Shown: positions 8,683 to 56,155, counted from the stretch's first letter. The stretch: DNA of 64,000 nucleotides from Candidatus Micrarchaeota archaeon (GCA_964643685.1 CAZXTN010000001.1:118737-182736); one strand, 5' to 3'. The notes: a model not told the origin generated them from the letters alone. Program-made: numbers and translations.

Positions 8683-8810
8683 GCAGAGGTGGCAGAGTGG
8701 TAATGCGCTGGTTCACTTTCGCTCGGCGAAATGAACGACTGAACGGAGTGAGGCGAGTCTTGAAAACCAGTGTCCTCCGGGGCGCTAGGGTTCAAATCCC
8801 TACCTCTGCG
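8683..8810 (+). tRNA. tRNA-Ser (anticodon TGA) with a 46-nt intron (8713-8758) at a non-canonical position (31/32 or 32/33); class II long variable arm; T-loop TTCAAAT; CCA not encoded
   Basis: Acceptor GCAGAGG/CCTCTGC+G, anticodon stem CTGGT/ACCAG, spliced loop CTTGAAA, T-stem TAGGG/CCCTA parsed by hand. Confidence 0.7.
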
Positions 8811-8849
8811 CTTTACTTTTATAATTTTACAGATTAAGTTGGTTACAAA

Positions 8850-8921
8850 ATGAAATCAATCGCAAATAAAAGACATGAAGGCTCAAACTTTCATTTTTTA
8901 TCTGTGAAAATGGATGGTTAA
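8850..8921 (+). CDS. conserved small ORF (23 aa, MKSIANKRHEGSNFHFLSVKMDG), paralogous to 35725-35802; may alternatively be a structured RNA motif
   Basis: First 17 nt identical in both copies; differences are mostly synonymous/conservative; stop lies 5 nt before the Nudix ATG at 8926. Confidence 0.4.
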   Translation: MKSIANKRHEGSNFHFLSVKMDG

Positions 8922-9381
8922 AAAAATGAAATACGAGTTGTTCAGAACATTTTTGAAAATCTGCAGGCACGAGTTTCCATTAGTAGGCGCAACTGCAATA
9001 ATAACAAACAAGAAAAAAGAAGTGCTGTTAAGTAGAAGGAAAAAAAGCGGGTTGTTTTATCCTGGTTATTGGAACCTCCCAGGGGGCTTGATTGAAATAG
9101 GAGAAACAGCAACAAAAGCCCTTAAAAGAGAAGTAAAAGAAGAGATAGGAGTAGACATAAAAGTGAAAAAATACACTGGAAGGTATTATGAAAAAAATTT
9201 AATTAGAAACAAGAAAATATATTCTACAATTACCCTTCCTTTCTACGCAGAGATAATAAGAGGAGTTCCAAAACCGCTTGACGAAACAATTGACGTGAAA
9301 TGGTTCAAACCAAGCGAAATAAGAAAAATGAAATTAGCTTACAATCATAAGGAAATATTAAAAGACGAAAAAATAATTTAA
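8914..9381 (+). CDS. Nudix hydrolase
   Basis: Nudix box GGLIEIGETATKALKREVKEEIG (GX5EX7REUXEEXGU); start could be ATG 8914 or 8926. Confidence 0.8.
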   Translation: MVKKMKYELFRTFLKICRHEFPLVGATAIITNKKKEVLLSRRKKSGLFYPGYWNLPGGLIEIGETATKALKREVKEEIGVDIKVKKYTGRYYEKNLIRNKKIYSTITLPFYAEIIRGVPKPLDETIDVKWFKPSEIRKMKLAYNHKEILKDEKII

Positions 9382-9910: not shown

Positions 9911-11344
9911 ATGGACTTAGCACAATTAAACAAAATATCAGAATACGAATGGGAAATAGAGCAAACAGGAAACATGAACGTACCTGGAAAAATATTCGCT
10001 TCACAGTCACTAGTTGAAGCAATGGGAGACAAGGTAAAAGAACAGATTCAAAACGTGGCCCAATTGCCAGGAATACAAAAAGCAGCAATGGCAATGCCAG
10101 ACGCCCACTGGGGCTACGGGTTCCCAATAGGAGGAGTAGCAGCATTTGACCCTGAAGAAGGAGGAGTCATCTGCATGGGAGGAGTTGGCTACGACATCTC
10201 ATGCGGAGTAAGGACACTTAAAACAAACATGACACTGGAGGAAATACAGCCTTACTTAGAGCCGCTAGCAGATGAATTATTTAAAACAGTACCAGCAGGG
10301 CTCGGAGTGCATGGAAAAATAAAATTAAACGTCGAGCAATTAGATGAAGTTTTAGTAAACGGAGCAGAATGGGTTATTGAAAAAGGATATGGCTTAGAAG
10401 AAGACTTGGAATACACTGAAGAAAGGGGAAAAATGGGAGGAGCAGACCCAACAAAAGTTTCATACAAAGCAAAAAAAAGACAATTTAAAGAGATAGGAAC
10501 ACTCGGCTCAGGAAACCATTACCTAGAAATACAATACGTTGATGAAATCTATGATGAAAAAATAGCAAAAATGTATGGATTGGAAAAAAACCAAATAGTA
10601 ATTTCACTGCATTGCGGTTCAAGAGCACTCGGACACCAAATAGGAGTTGATTACACAAAAACGCTGACAGAAGCAGCTGAAAAATACAAGCTAAATCTAC
10701 CAGACAAAGAATTGGCAGCAGCTCCAATCAACTCGCCAGAAGGACAAGATTACTACGCTGCAATGAAAGCAGGAGTAAACACAGCACTTGCAAACAGGCA
10801 AGTGATAGGTCACTTGGCAAGAACAGCATTTGAAAAAATAGTTCCAAACAGCGAAGTAAAAATGTTCTATGACATTTCACACAACACATGCAAAGAAGAA
10901 GAACATGTGATCGGCAACAAGAAAAAGAAATTATTCGTGCACAGGAAAGGGGCGACAAGAGCATTCGGCCCAGGCAGAAAAGAACTGCCAAAAAAATACA
11001 TGCAAGCAGGACAGCCAGTATTAATAGGCGGAACAATGGGAACATCTTCTTTCATTTTAGCTGGAACAGAAGAAGGAACTGAAAAAACATTCGGAAGCGC
11101 CTGCCACGGAGCAGGGAGAGGAATGAGCAGGAAACAAGCTAAAAAACAATTCCACGGAGAAAGCATAGTAAGCCAGTTGAAACAGCAGCAGAAGATAATA
11201 GTAAAAGCCCATTCAGCAGCAGGAGTAGCTGAAGAAGCGCCAGGAGCTTATAAGAATGTAGAGGAAGTGGTAAATTCCGTGCATTACACTGGCTTAGCTA
11301 AAAAAATAATCCGCTTAAAGCCACTAATAAACATTAAAGGATGA
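9911..11344 (+). CDS. rtcB: RNA-splicing (tRNA) ligase RtcB
   Basis: RtcB motifs (PDAHWGYG, GSGNHY, CHGAGR); GGAGGTG SD 9 nt upstream of ATG 9911; no intein. Confidence 0.9.
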   Translation: MDLAQLNKISEYEWEIEQTGNMNVPGKIFASQSLVEAMGDKVKEQIQNVAQLPGIQKAAMAMPDAHWGYGFPIGGVAAFDPEEGGVICMGGVGYDISCGVRTLKTNMTLEEIQPYLEPLADELFKTVPAGLGVHGKIKLNVEQLDEVLVNGAEWVIEKGYGLEEDLEYTEERGKMGGADPTKVSYKAKKRQFKEIGTLGSGNHYLEIQYVDEIYDEKIAKMYGLEKNQIVISLHCGSRALGHQIGVDYTKTLTEAAEKYKLNLPDKELAAAPINSPEGQDYYAAMKAGVNTALANRQVIGHLARTAFEKIVPNSEVKMFYDISHNTCKEEEHVIGNKKKKLFVHRKGATRAFGPGRKELPKKYMQAGQPVLIGGTMGTSSFILAGTEEGTEKTFGSACHGAGRGMSRKQAKKQFHGESIVSQLKQQQKIIVKAHSAAGVAEEAPGAYKNVEEVVNSVHYTGLAKKIIRLKPLINIKG

Positions 11345-11364
11345 AAAGCAGAAAGTAACAATAA

Positions 11365-11376
11365 CCTTTATAAATA
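11365..11376 (+). promoter_or_regulatory. BRE/TATA-like box CCTTTATAAATA in the 226-nt spacer upstream of rpl3
   Basis: Shared motif aaCCTTTATAAA. Confidence 0.45.
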
Positions 11377-11570
11377 AGTCGGATTACAAATTATAACACC
11401 TACTTATGGTAAAACATGGTAGTCCGGCACTTTAAGGTTGTTTATTTTTTAAACCTGAGGCGTATTTTTCAAAACGCTTGAATTTCAAAACTAGCAAGCT
11501 TCATGCTTACAAAAAATTAACTCAAAAAAAATCAAAGCATTGAATTAAAATTAATTGGTGAAAAAATCAA

Positions 11571-12597: not shown

Positions 12598-13398
12598 ATG
12601 AAAATGAAAGCAATTGTATATGACATTGAAGGAAAAGAAAAAGAAGAAATAGAACTGCCAGAAACATTTGAAGAAGCAGTACGCCCAGACATAATCAAAA
12701 GAGCATTCTTATCAATACGTTCAAAAGCATACCAAATCAAAGGAACAGACCCACTTGCAGGACTAAGGACATCAGCAACATACATCTCCAGAAGAAAAAG
12801 AGTATACAGGACAGCAATGAACATCGGAAGAGCAAGAGTAACAAGAATAAAAGAACCAGAAGCAAGATGGGGAGCAGCAAGAAGAGCATCACACGTAGTA
12901 AAAGGAAGAAGAGCACACCCACCAAAAGCAGAAAAAAAAATACAAGAAAAAATAAACAAGAAAGAAAACAAGAAAGCAATACGCTCAGCAATATCAGCAA
13001 CAGGAATAATAGAATGGGTGAAAAAAAGAGGACACTTAATCACAAAAATAAAACAACTGCCAATAATAATAGAAGACAAATTCCAAGAAATCAAAAAAAC
13101 AAAAGAAGCAAGAGAAGTGCTAAAAAAATTAAACCTCGAAGAGGACATAAAAAGAGCAGAGAAGAAAAAAATAAAAGCAGGAAAAGGAAAAACAAGAGGA
13201 AGAAAATACAAAAAGAAAAAATCAATACTAATAGTGATAAAAGAAGACAAAGGAATCAAAAAAGCAGCAAAAAACATACCAGGAGTAGAAATAGCAGAAG
13301 TGAAAGAACTTAATGCAGAACTGCTAGCACCAGGAGGACAACCAGGAAGACTCACAATATACACAAAATCAGCAATAGAAGAAATCAAAAAAATGTGA
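12598..13398 (+). CDS. rpl4: ribosomal protein L4
   Basis: L4/L1e family with K/E-rich insertion. Confidence 0.85.
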   Translation: MKMKAIVYDIEGKEKEEIELPETFEEAVRPDIIKRAFLSIRSKAYQIKGTDPLAGLRTSATYISRRKRVYRTAMNIGRARVTRIKEPEARWGAARRASHVVKGRRAHPPKAEKKIQEKINKKENKKAIRSAISATGIIEWVKKRGHLITKIKQLPIIIEDKFQEIKKTKEAREVLKKLNLEEDIKRAEKKKIKAGKGKTRGRKYKKKKSILIVIKEDKGIKKAAKNIPGVEIAEVKELNAELLAPGGQPGRLTIYTKSAIEEIKKM

Positions 13399-35025: not shown

Positions 35026-35116
35026 ACAAAATTGAAAAAAATAATACTCATTCTCAAAAAAAGCCAATGAGTTTTAAGCAGCGTAAAAAACTGCAATGAA
35101 AAAGGAGGAATTAAAA

Positions 35117-35485
35117 ATGGCAAGCCCATACGTGAAATTCAAAGTACCTAAAGAAATAGCAGAACAAACATACCAAGCAGTTGAAAAAGCAAGAGACACA
35201 GGAAAAATCAAAAAAGGAGTAAACGAAGCAACAAAAGCAGTTGAAAGAGCAACAGCAAAACTAGTTGTGATAGCAGAAGACGTAGCACCACCAGAAATAG
35301 TTGCATACCTGCCAATACTCTGCGAAGAAAAGAAAATACCCTACACATTCATCCCAACAAAAAAAGAACTAGGAAAAGCAGCAGGAATAAAAGTAGGAAC
35401 AACAGCAATAGCAATAATAGAAGAAGGAAGCGCAAAACAACTTGTTGAAAACATTGCAAAAAAAGTCGAAGAACTGAAAAAATAA
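35117..35485 (+). CDS. rpl7ae: ribosomal protein L7Ae (also C/D and H/ACA sRNP component)
   Basis: L7Ae family; GGAGG SD 7 nt upstream of ATG 35117. Confidence 0.9.
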
Positions 35486-35500
35486 GGGGATGAATAAAAA

Positions 35501-35710
35501 ATGGCAGACGACGCAGTACCAGCACAAGTAATGGAAATAATAGGAAAAACCGGCGTACACGGCGAAATATGGCAAGTCATGGTAAAAATACTAGAAGGAA
35601 GAGACAAGGGGAGAATCATAAGAAGAAACGTAAAAGGACCAGTAAGAAAAGACGACTTGCTAATGCTAATAGACACAGAAACAGAAGCAAAACCAATAAG
35701 AGGACGCTAA
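35501..35710 (+). CDS. rps28e: ribosomal protein S28e
   Basis: S28e family (AEVIEIIGRTGMHGEV-like). Confidence 0.9.
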
Positions 35711-35724
35711 ATAGGTGAAAATAA

Positions 35725-35802
35725 ATGAAATCAATCGCAAAAGAAGGATATGAAAGCTCAAGATTTCATTTTCTTACTATAAAGAAAGGTGAAAGCAAAT
35801 GA
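35725..35802 (+). CDS. conserved small ORF (25 aa, MKSIAKEGYESSRFHFLTIKKGESK), paralogue of 8850-8921; stop overlaps rpl24e ATG
   Basis: Second copy of the AATGAAATCAATCGCAAA...TTTCATTTT element. Confidence 0.4.
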   Translation: MKSIAKEGYESSRFHFLTIKKGESK

Positions 35803-35981
35803 AATGTTCATTTTGTAAACAAGAAATACCAAAAGGAAGCGGAAAACTCTACGTGCTGAAAGACGGCACTAGATATTACTTCTGCTCCAGCAAATGCCAA
35901 AACAATATGCTTAAACTCAAAAGAAAACCAAGAAAAGTAAAATGGATAACAAAAAAGAAAAAAGAGGAGAAAAAGCAATGA
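35799..35981 (+). CDS. rpl24e: ribosomal protein L24e
   Basis: L24e zinc ribbon CSFCKQ...CSSKC. Confidence 0.9.
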   Translation: MKCSFCKQEIPKGSGKLYVLKDGTRYYFCSSKCQNNMLKLKRKPRKVKWITKKKKEEKKQ

Positions 35982-36643: not shown

Positions 36644-36754
36644 AAAAACAACAGCAAGCAAGAAAGCAATTAAAAAAAAGGAATGTCCTCCGGCTTAACA
36701 CCAAACAAAAACCAAGCTGAGGAACTAATTAAAAAAAGAAACAGATGAAAAAAA

Positions 36755-47511: not shown

Positions 47512-47530
47512 AGTCCCGTAGTCTAGTGGC
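47512..47530 (+). repeat. upstream exact copy of tRNA-Gln 5' module (AGTCCCGTAGTCTAGTGGC)
   Basis: 19/19 identity to 47667-47685; followed by three perfect hairpins. Confidence 0.8.
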
Positions 47531-47920: not shown

Positions 47921-48038
47921 TAACCCATCACTTATTATAAAATCACTAACAGATTTACAAAAAGACCACTAAGCGAAGCGCATGTGGTCTGCGGGGAGAT
48001 CAGAAACTCCCTAGAAATGAGAGGGGCAGCAAGCCCCT

Positions 48039-54215: not shown

Positions 54216-54932
54216 TTAGTGTTTAGGCATGTATTTTTCTCTTAGTTTCTTTGCATATTTTTCCTTGACATTTATTTTTATTTCTTTGAATTTCTGTTTT
54301 GGTTTTTCAGGCACGTAGCTTGAGGCAAAGTCGCTTGCTTTTCTTCTCACTATTGGCTGTTCTTTTTTAATTACTTTTTTTTCTGGCTTAAGTTGAGAGA
54401 TTATTTCTTTTAATTCTTCATTTTGAGTAAATAAGTAAGAAAGGACAAGGAGTGAAAGGATTAGTGAAACAAGTGATATTATGCCTATTATGTTGATGAA
54501 GTCAATTGAATTGCTTGTGTTCAAGGCGACAATAAGGCCTGTTATTCTTGCTCCTTCTTCATTGAATCCGTATCTTTCATAAGTTGCTTTTGATTTTTCA
54601 TAAAGTTGTATTGCTTTGCTTTTAAGCCCTTCTTTTTTGTAGGCTTCTGCTGCTTTTTCATAGGAGCTTGCTCTTAAGAAATTGTCTGCTCCTGGAAGAA
54701 GGGAATCAGCAGCGTCAATGTAATACTCGGCTGATTTTTCATAGTAAAAATTAGCTTGTTTAATGTTTCCTTGGTTGTAAAAGCAGTCTCCTGCGTGCAT
54801 GTATTCTCCAGCTGCGCCGAAGTAGCTTGGGTAAGGTGGTGCTAGTCTGTCTTCTGCTAGTGACACGAAGTCGTAGCAGTTGGCAAAAACAAGCCCTGTT
54901 AAAACAAGTAAAGAGAATAAAATTTTTTTCAT
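54216..54932 (-). CDS. hypothetical membrane-anchored protein (signal peptide + C-proximal TM, TPR-like helical region)
   Basis: Hydrophobicity pattern only. Confidence 0.45.
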   Translation of the reverse strand: MKKILFSLLVLTGLVFANCYDFVSLAEDRLAPPYPSYFGAAGEYMHAGDCFYNQGNIKQANFYYEKSAEYYIDAADSLLPGADNFLRASSYEKAAEAYKKEGLKSKAIQLYEKSKATYERYGFNEEGARITGLIVALNTSNSIDFINIIGIISLVSLILSLLVLSYLFTQNEELKEIISQLKPEKKVIKKEQPIVRRKASDFASSYVPEKPKQKFKEIKINVKEKYAKKLREKYMPKH

Positions 54933-55030
54933 GATTATTTTTATGAAAAAACTTGTTTATTTAGTTTTTCTTTTAGAGAAAAGTAGATAAACTAAAAGAA
55001 AAACGTTTGAGCAAACAAGAAAAAGGCGAT

Positions 55031-56155
55031 TTACCTTTTCTTTTTTCTATTGTTGCTTTTTTTCTTTGTTTTCTGTTGTGGTATGAATGGAGGTATTTTT
55101 CCAGCTGGCTCTGATATTATAACTTGTTTTGGGTAAGGTATTTCCACGTCATGTTTTGAGAATTCGTTTAATATTATTCTTTTGGCATCTGATTGGGCGT
55201 CAACAAGGCTTCCTTTTTTAGTGTCAAGCCAGAACCTTAATTGCAGGTCTATTGAAGATGCTCCGAAGTTTTGAAGCAGGACTTGTATTGGTTTTTTTGA
55301 ATTGTTTAAGATAGCTCCTTTTATTTTTGTAGGCACTTTTTTCATTATATCCATTGCTGTTTTCAAGTCGCTTTCATAAGCAATGCCTACGTCAACTTCT
55401 ATTCTTCTGTTTTTTTCTCTTGTGTAATTTATGACTGGGTTGCTGTTGATGATGAGGTTTGGTATCATTATTACTTTATTGTCAAATGTTTTCAGCTTTG
55501 TCATTCTTAACCCTATTTCATCAACTACTCCTAGTTTTCCTTGTATTTCAACAACTTCTCCGTATCTCAATGGCTTGTCAAAAGCAATGAATATTCCTGC
55601 TAAAGTGTTTGACACAACATCTTTTGCGGCGAAACCTACTGTGATTCCAATTACTCCTGCTCCTGCTATGAAGCCGGTAAACACGCTGGTATATCCTAAG
55701 ATTGACAAGGCTGCGAAGAAGGCAATGGTGTAAATAGTGTAGCTTATTATGTTTTCAATCATTTTATGAGTGTGTTCTGACAAGTCAATTGACTCCATTT
55801 TTTCGTCAATTTTTCTGATTGAAGGACGCAGTACTGCGAGAGAAATTTTCATTACAAAAAAAAGCAGGATTAACTGGTAGTACTTGTTATTGAAAACATC
55901 ATTTACTCCCAAAATGAGGAACAGAATGTAGAAGGATATTATGTATATTGCGAATCTTATTGCGTTTGCAAGTTCCTTGTGTGCTGTTTCTGACAGGTCC
56001 ATTTTGTGATATTGGTCTACCCAATCGTCAAGCCATTTTGGAATACGGGGGATGATTTTTACGCTGAGGAAAGTAGATACTGCCCATATTCCAATTTCTA
56101 TTGCTTTTGCAAGCAAGACTGCTTCTTCAATTGAGTATCCGAATAATTCAATCAT
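55031..56155 (-). CDS. mscS: mechanosensitive ion channel, MscS family
   Basis: TM3 + beta-domain (LRMTKLKTFDNKVIMIPN). Confidence 0.8.
   Translation of the reverse strand: MIELFGYSIEEAVLLAKAIEIGIWAVSTFLSVKIIPRIPKWLDDWVDQYHKMDLSETAHKELANAIRFAIYIISFYILFLILGVNDVFNNKYYQLILLFFVMKISLAVLRPSIRKIDEKMESIDLSEHTHKMIENIISYTIYTIAFFAALSILGYTSVFTGFIAGAGVIGITVGFAAKDVVSNTLAGIFIAFDKPLRYGEVVEIQGKLGVVDEIGLRMTKLKTFDNKVIMIPNLIINSNPVINYTREKNRRIEVDVGIAYESDLKTAMDIMKKVPTKIKGAILNNSKKPIQVLLQNFGASSIDLQLRFWLDTKKGSLVDAQSDAKRIILNEFSKHDVEIPYPKQVIISEPAGKIPPFIPQQKTKKKSNNRKKKR

Follow-up and report, generated by a model that had tools for sequence, protein, structure and literature searches.

Two short open reading frames (ORFs), each immediately upstream of an unrelated gene, share a run of sequence in the 64-kb stretch of DNA analysed here (hereafter the window). 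The preliminary description took them to encode a peptide under selection, with a structured RNA or regulatory leader as its fallback. What has been conserved or copied at the two sites? Our answer, held with moderate confidence, is that both belong to a small family of hairpin-forming insertion elements, mobile or duplicative and MITE/REP-like in an atypical way.

Two matching spacers in the window

The source names carried by homologues suggest a Woesearchaeota-like archaeon (DPANN). Co-directional genes of the window are mostly separated by a few to about 20 nt, and in most genes the ATG is preceded, at a distance of about 6-9 nt, by an SD-like motif (GGTGA, AGTGA or GAGG), with an A-rich spacer between. 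Copy 1 lies 39 nt past an intron-containing tRNA gene (8683-8810) and immediately before a Nudix gene, which is followed by archease and RtcB genes. Copy 2 occupies the rps28e-rpl24e spacer of the usual rpl7ae-rps28e-rpl24e cluster, with rps28e at 35501-35710 and rpl24e at 35799-35981.

The best direct repeat of the whole window joins 8848-8916 to 35723-35791, with 53 of 69 positions identical in an ungapped alignment. Its composition-aware score was 53.4 bits, against maxima of 31, 34 and 37 bits in sequences simulated under Markov models of order 1, 3 and 5, respectively (25 sequences each). The exact block shared by the two copies, reported as 18 of 18 nucleotides, in fact extends over 19 nt (8848-8866 and 35723-35741). 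Since exact 18-20-mers are common in a plus strand with 44% A, where 12 exact repeat pairs of at least 18 nt were counted, the significance of the match rests on its extended part and not on the 18-mer. Within the window, nhmmer returned two clear copies only, and tblastn with the two peptides found only copy 1 and copy 2. The pattern CAATCGC-N12-20-GCTCAA, which both contain, has a chance expectation of 0.00 per window (64 kb).

All parts of copy 1 lie on the plus strand. Its left arm, GGTTACAAAATGAAAT (8841-8856), comprises an SD-like sequence, a spacer and a decoy ATG at 8850; it provides the 5' strand of an outer helix and has 9 bp of complementarity to 8889-8897. Next come the conserved module CAATCGC, 17 nt, GCTCAA (8857-8886), which was recovered by pattern scan, covariance model (46 bits, E = 5e-7) and RNAalifold, and an anti-start, TTTCATTTTTT (8889-8899), complementary to the decoy start over 9 nt and to the Nudix start region (8921-8931) over 11 nt. 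The right repeat, GGTTAAAAAAATGAAAT (8916-8932), bears the working Nudix start, ATG 8926. From the decoy start opens sORF1 (8850-8921, 23 aa, MKSIANKRHEGSNFHFLSVKMDG, MKSIAN...), whose stop codon (8919-8921) ends 4 nt ahead of the Nudix ATG, one less than the 5 nt first reported. The TATA-like box announced for this site is present as the run TTTTATAATTTT at 8817-8828.

Copy 2, also on the plus strand, begins with the left arm GGTGAAAATAAATGAAAT (35714-35731), made of the SD sequence GGTGA, 6 nt and a decoy ATG at 35725. It continues with the module CAATCGC, 17 nt, GCTCAA (35732-35761, 44.6 bits with the covariance model) and the anti-start GATTTCATTTT (35762-35772), which forms 10 bp with 35723-35732 and has 9 nt of complementarity to the rpl24e start. 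The right repeat, GGTGAAAGCAAATGAAAT (35788-35805), holds the SD and ATG (35799) of rpl24e; one such unit is present at the empty site of the relative L196, described below. The stop of sORF2 (35725-35802, 25 aa, MKSIAKEGYESSRFHFLTIKKGESK, MKSIAK...), TGA at 35800-35802, overlaps the rpl24e ATG at 35799, so the ATGA overlap described earlier stands, as do both ORFs and their translations. Inverted repeats were likewise confirmed in both copies (AAAATGAAA/TTTCATTTT in copy 1 and AAATGAAATC/GATTTCATTT in copy 2).

A degenerate third copy is tentatively placed on the minus strand in the MscS-to-TPR gene spacer (54933-55036). Here TAAATCGCC, 12 nt and GCTCAAAC are accompanied by a 9-bp outer helix, AAAAGAAAA/TTTTCTTTT, next to which lie a 13-bp hairpin and then TTTTTTCAT/ATGAAAAAA, pairing over the next start. 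The covariance model gave this site just 14-15 bits (E about 1-4), and we regard it as a possible further copy. As a separate observation, TTTTTTCAT stands 10 nt upstream of ATGAAAAAA, the start of the TPR-like gene at 54932 (54933-54965, minus strand), and the two could form a 9-bp hairpin burying the start codon of that gene.

Several tRNA features of the window were also noted. The tRNA upstream of copy 1 has a long variable arm, by eye that of a tRNA-Ser (anticodon UGA), and its anticodon loop is interrupted on the 5' side by an intron of 52 nt; a region-level Rfam search scored it as tRNA with 45.6 bits. ARAGORN and a whole-window Rfam scan at gathering thresholds returned nothing, missing even this gene. 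Between 47513 and 48069 lie two tRNA-like 5' ends (AGTCCCGTAGTCTAGTGGC, at 47513 and 47668) and two matching tRNA-like 3' ends (GAAACTCCGCCCGGGACTA, ending at 47921 and 48069), with long inserts between; neither ARAGORN nor Rfam made a call in this region, which may hold multi-intron, split or permuted tRNA genes.

Occupied and empty sites in related genomes

Relatives covering the rps28e-rpl24e spacer were reached through homologues of L24e and adenylate kinase. Relative to five of them (L196, L197, L003, L004 and L006), the whole 88-nt spacer of the window (35711-35798, plus strand) is an insertion. The corresponding spacer measures 12 nt in L196, about 13 nt in L197 and 2-7 nt in L003, L004 and L006, which share 68-77% nucleotide identity with the window. 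Alignments of these relatives to the window end at 35697-35704, at the end of rps28e, and restart at 35799 (35781 for L004). The empty site of L196 reads TAA-aGGTGAaaaagtATGAAATGTTC and contains one SD-spacer-ATGAAAT unit, versus the two that flank the insert in the window.

Further members came from a sister species, 82-90% identical to the window in nucleotides and colinear with it over 18 kb. Its sequences are L129 and, from a single 105-kb contig, the stretches L128 and L194. The NusA-KH|rps12 junction, 19 nt long in the window, has about 80 nt extra in L128, arranged as GGTTAAAAAAAATG-CAATCGCATTCTCTGAAAAGAATGCTCAAA-CATTTTTTTCAACC-...-GAGGTCAAAAAAAATG-CCAGG. L129, at 99.8-99.9% identity to L128, carries the element at this junction in two tandem copies with an 81-nt period. 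The rps28e|rpl24e spacer of L194 is 156 nt long and contains two AATCGC-hairpin-GCTCAA modules plus a third hairpin, with four helices in all, and a 12-bp helix, AAAAATGAAATT/AATTTCATTTTT, encloses all the hairpins.

A covariance model trained on five modules found two members absent from its training set, one upstream of aIF5B at the ADK|aIF5B junction of L196 (31 bits, E = 8.5e-4) and the other upstream of rpl7ae at the GluRS|rpl7ae junction of L194 (22.9 bits, E = 0.04). A refined model (R2) detected no further significant copies in the window and 12 related loci. About 150 kb of sequence from a small number of related genomes yielded five firm junctions and a marginal sixth; the relatives are all metagenome contigs, and every firm copy is in sense orientation. 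At the rpl7ae site, the window has an in-frame ATG seven codons upstream of the conserved MASPYVK start (35096-35120); in L194 (8990-9073) the element lies between the two rpl7ae starts as an exact in-frame insertion of 20 codons (60 nt) with no stop.

Wider scans returned chance matches. Those with the 17-mer ATGAAATCAATCGCAAA in genomes were in bacteria, and among the matches listed none could be extended. In metagenomes, a strict two-gap pattern gave no match and a relaxed one gave 57 stretches, chance matches inside unrelated genes except for L153, which is the L129 contig; scans of viral contigs gave chance matches only. Pattern scans of public collections yielded no copy outside the genus (for genomes, among the matches listed). 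On the sequences compared, the element is a low-copy, genus-specific family.

Pairwise nucleotide identities (89.7% for L194-L196, 87.3% for window-L194, 84.8% for window-L196 and 82-83% for L197) suggest that L194 and L196 are closest to each other, followed by the window and then L197. L196 and L197 are empty at the rps28e|rpl24e junction, which is filled in the window and in the L128/L194 genome. At ADK|aIF5B, the element is present in L196 and missing from the window and from L128/L194. At NusA-KH|rps12, the window is empty, L128/L194 is filled and L129 holds its tandem pair, and at tRNA-Ser|Nudix the window is filled and L128/L194 is empty. Several copies with insertion polymorphism in related genomes, as looked for in MITEs, were found, and the comparisons show gain, loss and tandem duplication of elements between very close genomes. 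Such turnover at 85-90% identity, before unrelated genes, points to a mobile or duplicative repeat and not to the inherited leader of one gene. No mobilising gene or transposase was found among the ORFs inspected (48-60 kb of the window), all of which were housekeeping genes.

Other differences and similarities between these genomes concern neighbouring spacers. The anticodon arm is intact in the sister-species orthologue of the tRNA-Ser gene (L128 10470-10588), whose T-loop, by eye, contains an insertion of about 33 nt. A block of about 110 nt in the RtcB-to-rpl3 spacer (window 11364-11475, L128 13208-13320) is kept between the species and the adjoining spacer is not; it had no Rfam match at E up to 1 and may be an unannotated small RNA or operon leader. 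Relative to the window, L128 has an 85-nt insertion after RtcB (13123-13208) that contains a G+C-rich hairpin (GGAGGG...CCCTCC) and, after it, a T run, together resembling a terminator. The adenylate kinase-to-aIF5B spacer holds a conserved hairpin, CCTCCGGCTT...AAGCTGAGG (window 36681-36725, L194 10690-10735, L196 1100-1145). The gene after rps10 varies in close relatives (L131, L132, L133 and L135): the window has a tRNA plus Nudix there, L131 a gene resembling D-aminoacyl-tRNA deacylase, and L135 an ORF of 57 aa together with an M23 peptidase, and the junction downstream of rps10 is a rearrangement hot spot.

Architecture of the element and competing explanations

Every copy, about 75-135 nt long, has the same order of parts: a local left arm, (A/C)AATCG, a variable hairpin (a loop in the window copies), C-YCAA, the inverted left arm, an A-rich tail, and an SD plus ATG. 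Constant bases number only about 10 (AATCG and YCAA), and the two constant strands form a 4x4 internal loop in which AAUC faces UCAA or CCAA. The covariation analysis across homologues showed that the inner stems differ yet stay paired (GCATTCT/AGAATGC, GCAATCT/AGATTGC, GCAAC/GTTGC, GCAATT/AATTGC and GAAG/CTTC), compensatory changes keeping them so around the conserved unpaired bases, as expected of a structured RNA or single-stranded DNA. The fallback of the preliminary description, a structured non-coding element, thereby gains support, with a nucleotide motif set in a hairpin whose stems change and go on pairing.

The outer arms are locus-specific. Each 5' arm has 9-13 contiguous bases complementary to its own 3' arm; towards 3' arms from copies whose arm sequence differs, complementarity is mostly shorter (4-9 nt). 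Usually the left arm is the SD, spacer and AT(G) of the downstream gene, and at the rpl7ae site it is the gene's own GGAGGAAATAAAAAT; in one case, the minus-strand site 54933-55036, it is the end of the upstream gene, the MscS coding sequence. Because the left arm is native sequence, the inverted copy was probably generated from the target or adapted to it. Flanking direct repeats of 16-24 nt were seen at every copy, with one unit at empty sites; they resemble generic SD-ATG contexts, and L128 and copy 2 are the only cases in which their similarity clearly exceeds that of gene starts in general. In L194, the right-hand SD tails of the two loci are near-identical, which suggests that the tail travels with the element and is not a target duplication.

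Sister-species copies (L128 and L194) fold strongly, with z = -4.3 to -6.6. Both window copies are without an inner stem. A stretch of 17 A/G-rich bases, with GC/GC as closing pairs, stands in its place, folding is weak (z = -2.3 and -0.5), and the two copies have the appearance of a partly decayed subtype peculiar to this genome. Among known structures, Rfam 15 gave no match with E < 0.03 for the copies of the window, L128 and L194, all scores being far under the gathering values. A C/D-box sRNA was rejected, with no RUGAUGA or CUGA boxes in register and Rfam snoRNA matches at E >= 0.2, and so were a K-turn (tandem G.A pairs absent, by eye), an integron attC site (conserved R''/R' triplets absent, by eye) and a CRISPR array (just two dissimilar modules, by eye). 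A bulge-helix-bulge mini-intron, with two 3-nt bulges 4 bp apart, does not fit either: the AAUC/YCAA strands are directly opposed, the bulges are not staggered and the A-rich junctions are unable to pair.

A conserved internal loop with covarying stems is also expected of a functional protein-binding RNA. The copies might be a cis-regulatory RNA, spread by duplication, whose 4x4 loop (AAUC opposite YCAA) binds a putative protein or which acts as a thermosensor; its anti-start would pair with the decoy or the real start and control initiation at the downstream cistron. The preservation of the loop while the stems covary agrees with this, as does the sense orientation of every copy at translation starts. 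Among about 88 starts scanned, start-covering upstream complementarity of at least 9 nt was confined to Nudix (11 nt) and rpl24e (9 nt) and never exceeded 7 nt elsewhere, and the tendency of the short ORFs to end at the next start fits termination-reinitiation coupling, which is known from archaea (PMC6728339). A regulatory RNA would, on the other hand, have to serve unrelated downstream genes (Nudix, L24e, S12, L7Ae and aIF5B), alternate between filled and empty sites at 85-90% identity, duplicate in tandem between near-identical strains and be missing from more distant relatives. The two window copies, weakly folded and devoid of the inner hairpin, and the lack of an Rfam family match also count against it. 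We consider this explanation rather unlikely; the anti-start pairing options and the short ORFs ending at or near the true start nevertheless keep a regulatory role alive as an alternative, and such a role is also compatible with a mobile origin.

There might, instead, be no family at all: copies 1 and 2 would stem from a one-off segmental duplication or gene conversion between starts sharing AAATGAAAT, and the similarities in the sister genomes from coincidental, local hairpin-driven template switching. ATGAAAT is common to both window targets, and an nhmmer comparison of the window copies with L128 alone found no significant similarity. An unrelated 60-nt palindromic insert in L128 that duplicates 12 nt of a tRNA 5' end indicates that such local events occur in this lineage. 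This account is improbable in view of the AATCG...YCAA modules with the same architecture at four further junctions, of the two modules that the covariance model found untrained, and of a motif expected by chance 0.00 times per 64 kb. The L128 insert itself (10400-10470), about 60 nt long and upstream of the tRNA, is devoid of the AATCG/YCAA motif; its 12-nt direct repeat AATGCAGAGGTG duplicates the tRNA 5' end and an inverted copy, CCTCAGCATT, lies inside, giving a direct-inverted-direct layout like that of the element.

As to the peptides, the differences between the two ORFs had been described as largely synonymous or conservative. The count was otherwise: 13 codons differ, 2 of them synonymously and 11 non-synonymously, and nucleotide differences fall on codon positions 1, 2 and 3 in the ratio 7:4:7, with no third-position excess. 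Codon phases differ as well, AATCGC being in phase 2 in the window, 1 in L128 and 1 and 2 in the L194 modules, and GCTCAA in phase 1 in the window, 2 in L128 and 1 and 2 in the L194 modules. The peptides of L128 (MQSHSLKRMLKHFFQPN) and L194 (41 aa) resemble the window peptides no better than shuffles do, and at the L196 copy ATC replaces ATG and no ATG-led ORF runs through the element. An exact look-up in a collection of 15 billion proteins did not contain the peptides. Conservation, in short, lies at the nucleotide and not at the codon level, the pattern that the preliminary description had itself named as counting against a peptide, and the conserved-peptide interpretation is largely refuted by these comparisons.

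The ends of the ORFs call for a separate comment. Copy 2 overlaps the next start by ATGA, copy 1 and L194 end 4 and 9 nt from it, respectively, and L128 stops 26 nt early. The shuffle P values for a frame open to near the next start were 0.105 (copy 1), 0.102 (copy 2), 0.018 (L194) and 0.23 (L128). Frames being open more often than in shuffles, translation through the element, and not its product, may be tolerated or under selection. The best reading of the peptides is that they are by-products of a repeat carrying a start codon. A conserved micro-protein or leader peptide of 23-25 aa encoded before unrelated genes can draw on 12 of 23 residues identical between the two ORFs, on the good SD with canonical spacing of copy 2, on stops that abut the next start and on the 41 open codons of L194 (P = 0.018), but is very improbable given the excess of non-synonymous codon changes, the unrelated peptide encoded in a different motif phase at the same rps28e|rpl24e junction of L194, the L196 copy lacking an ATG-led ORF, the early end in L128 and the absence of the exact peptides from the protein collection.

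Proposed mechanism and comparison with known systems

The family of insertion elements that we favour could work as follows. At the DNA level it would be a hairpin element, mobile or duplicative and non-autonomous, with the constant loop AAUC opposite YCAA as the likely recognition site for a trans-acting protein. The outer stem would be made from the target, through recombination at the arm or through target duplication combined with fold-back template switching. Such switching at a hairpin, after which the flank is re-copied, could give the direct-inverted-direct layout; a small circle integrating by a single crossover at the arm could give it too. The element would have spread or been remodelled through its hairpin. 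At the RNA level it would be co-transcribed with the operon, and the outer helix would mask the decoy start. A surviving decoy ATG would open a short ORF of arbitrary sequence, ending at or near the true start. The A-rich tail would provide the new SD and ATG of the downstream essential gene, which would be translated via its own SD or via termination-reinitiation.

More speculatively, the element may represent a hitherto undescribed type of hairpin element, selfish or regulatory, in the ultra-compact genomes of DPANN archaea, recognised via its AAUC/YCAA 4x4 loop, building its outer stem from the translation-start sequence of its target and installing a replacement SD and ATG; we put this forward as a tentative proposal. 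If true, a hairpin element could colonise essential ribosomal-protein operons without breaking them, by a mechanism (structure-specific single-strand DNA insertion or an RNA-binding regulator) that would have no described archaeal counterpart. DPANN archaea have among the most compact genomes known and, to our knowledge, almost nothing is known of their repeats and gene-expression signals. An element that landed time and again at ribosomal-protein operon junctions, turned the local start signal into part of a hairpin and left the gene with a new SD and ATG would show how mobile or duplicative DNA persists with almost no non-coding room. There is also a practical warning, in that short ORFs seemingly conserved at paralogous sites can be by-products of a start-carrying repeat. 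Should the constant loop be a protein-binding site, it would offer a handle for finding a nucleic-acid-binding factor in organisms that cannot be cultured.

The literature searched held no description of such an element. Small palindromic repeats of prokaryotes, including MITEs, ERIC, REP/BIME, Correia/NEMIS and RUP, have been reviewed, and archaeal MITEs are described in Sulfolobus, Halobacterium and Haloquadratum (PMC10969869). Like these, the element is short, non-coding, AT-rich, hairpin-forming and multi-copy, lies in transcribed spacers, is present or absent between close genomes, has flanking direct repeats and can create small ORFs. Unlike those of MITEs, its inverted repeat (9-13 nt) is non-terminal: the right arm is internal with a 25-45-nt tail, the left arm is native flank, and the outer arm is target-derived and differs by locus. 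With flanking repeats of 16-24 nt, atypically long for MITEs, and a non-terminal inverted repeat, it does not fit the classical MITE criteria cleanly. It also differs from MITEs in its low copy number, its mere 10 or so constant bases and the replacement SD and ATG that it brings in, and no parent IS or transposase was seen for it among the ORFs inspected in 48-60 kb of the window.

Rickettsia palindromic elements (RPEs), of about 150 bp, encode a conserved peptide and lie inside genes (PMC10969869). Like an RPE, the element is a palindromic repeat surviving in expressed regions by an open frame, as in the stop-free, 60-nt in-frame rpl7ae copy of L194, whereas its peptide is not conserved and its sites are gene junctions. 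Termination-reinitiation translational coupling has been described in archaea (PMC6728339). The ATGA overlap at rpl24e resembles such coupling and upstream-ORF leaders, and so do the short distances (4-9 nt) between ORF end and next start in copy 1 and L194 and an anti-start able to pair with either start. Unlike upstream-ORF leaders, the element serves no single gene family, has no regulatory codons and is dispensable in close relatives.

A further comparison is with the hairpin-plus-guide ends of IS200/IS605 elements, their PATE derivatives and the REP/RAYT systems. Genes for TnpA, TnpB or RAYT were not seen in the sequence available (the 64-kb window and about 45 kb of sister genomes). We know of no target duplication or inverted flank copy in these systems, in which respect the element differs from them. 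It shares with them a variable hairpin flanked by short constant nucleotides as well as strand and orientation specificity and, by analogy, its hairpin and constant nucleotides could be readable by a single-strand DNA transposase.
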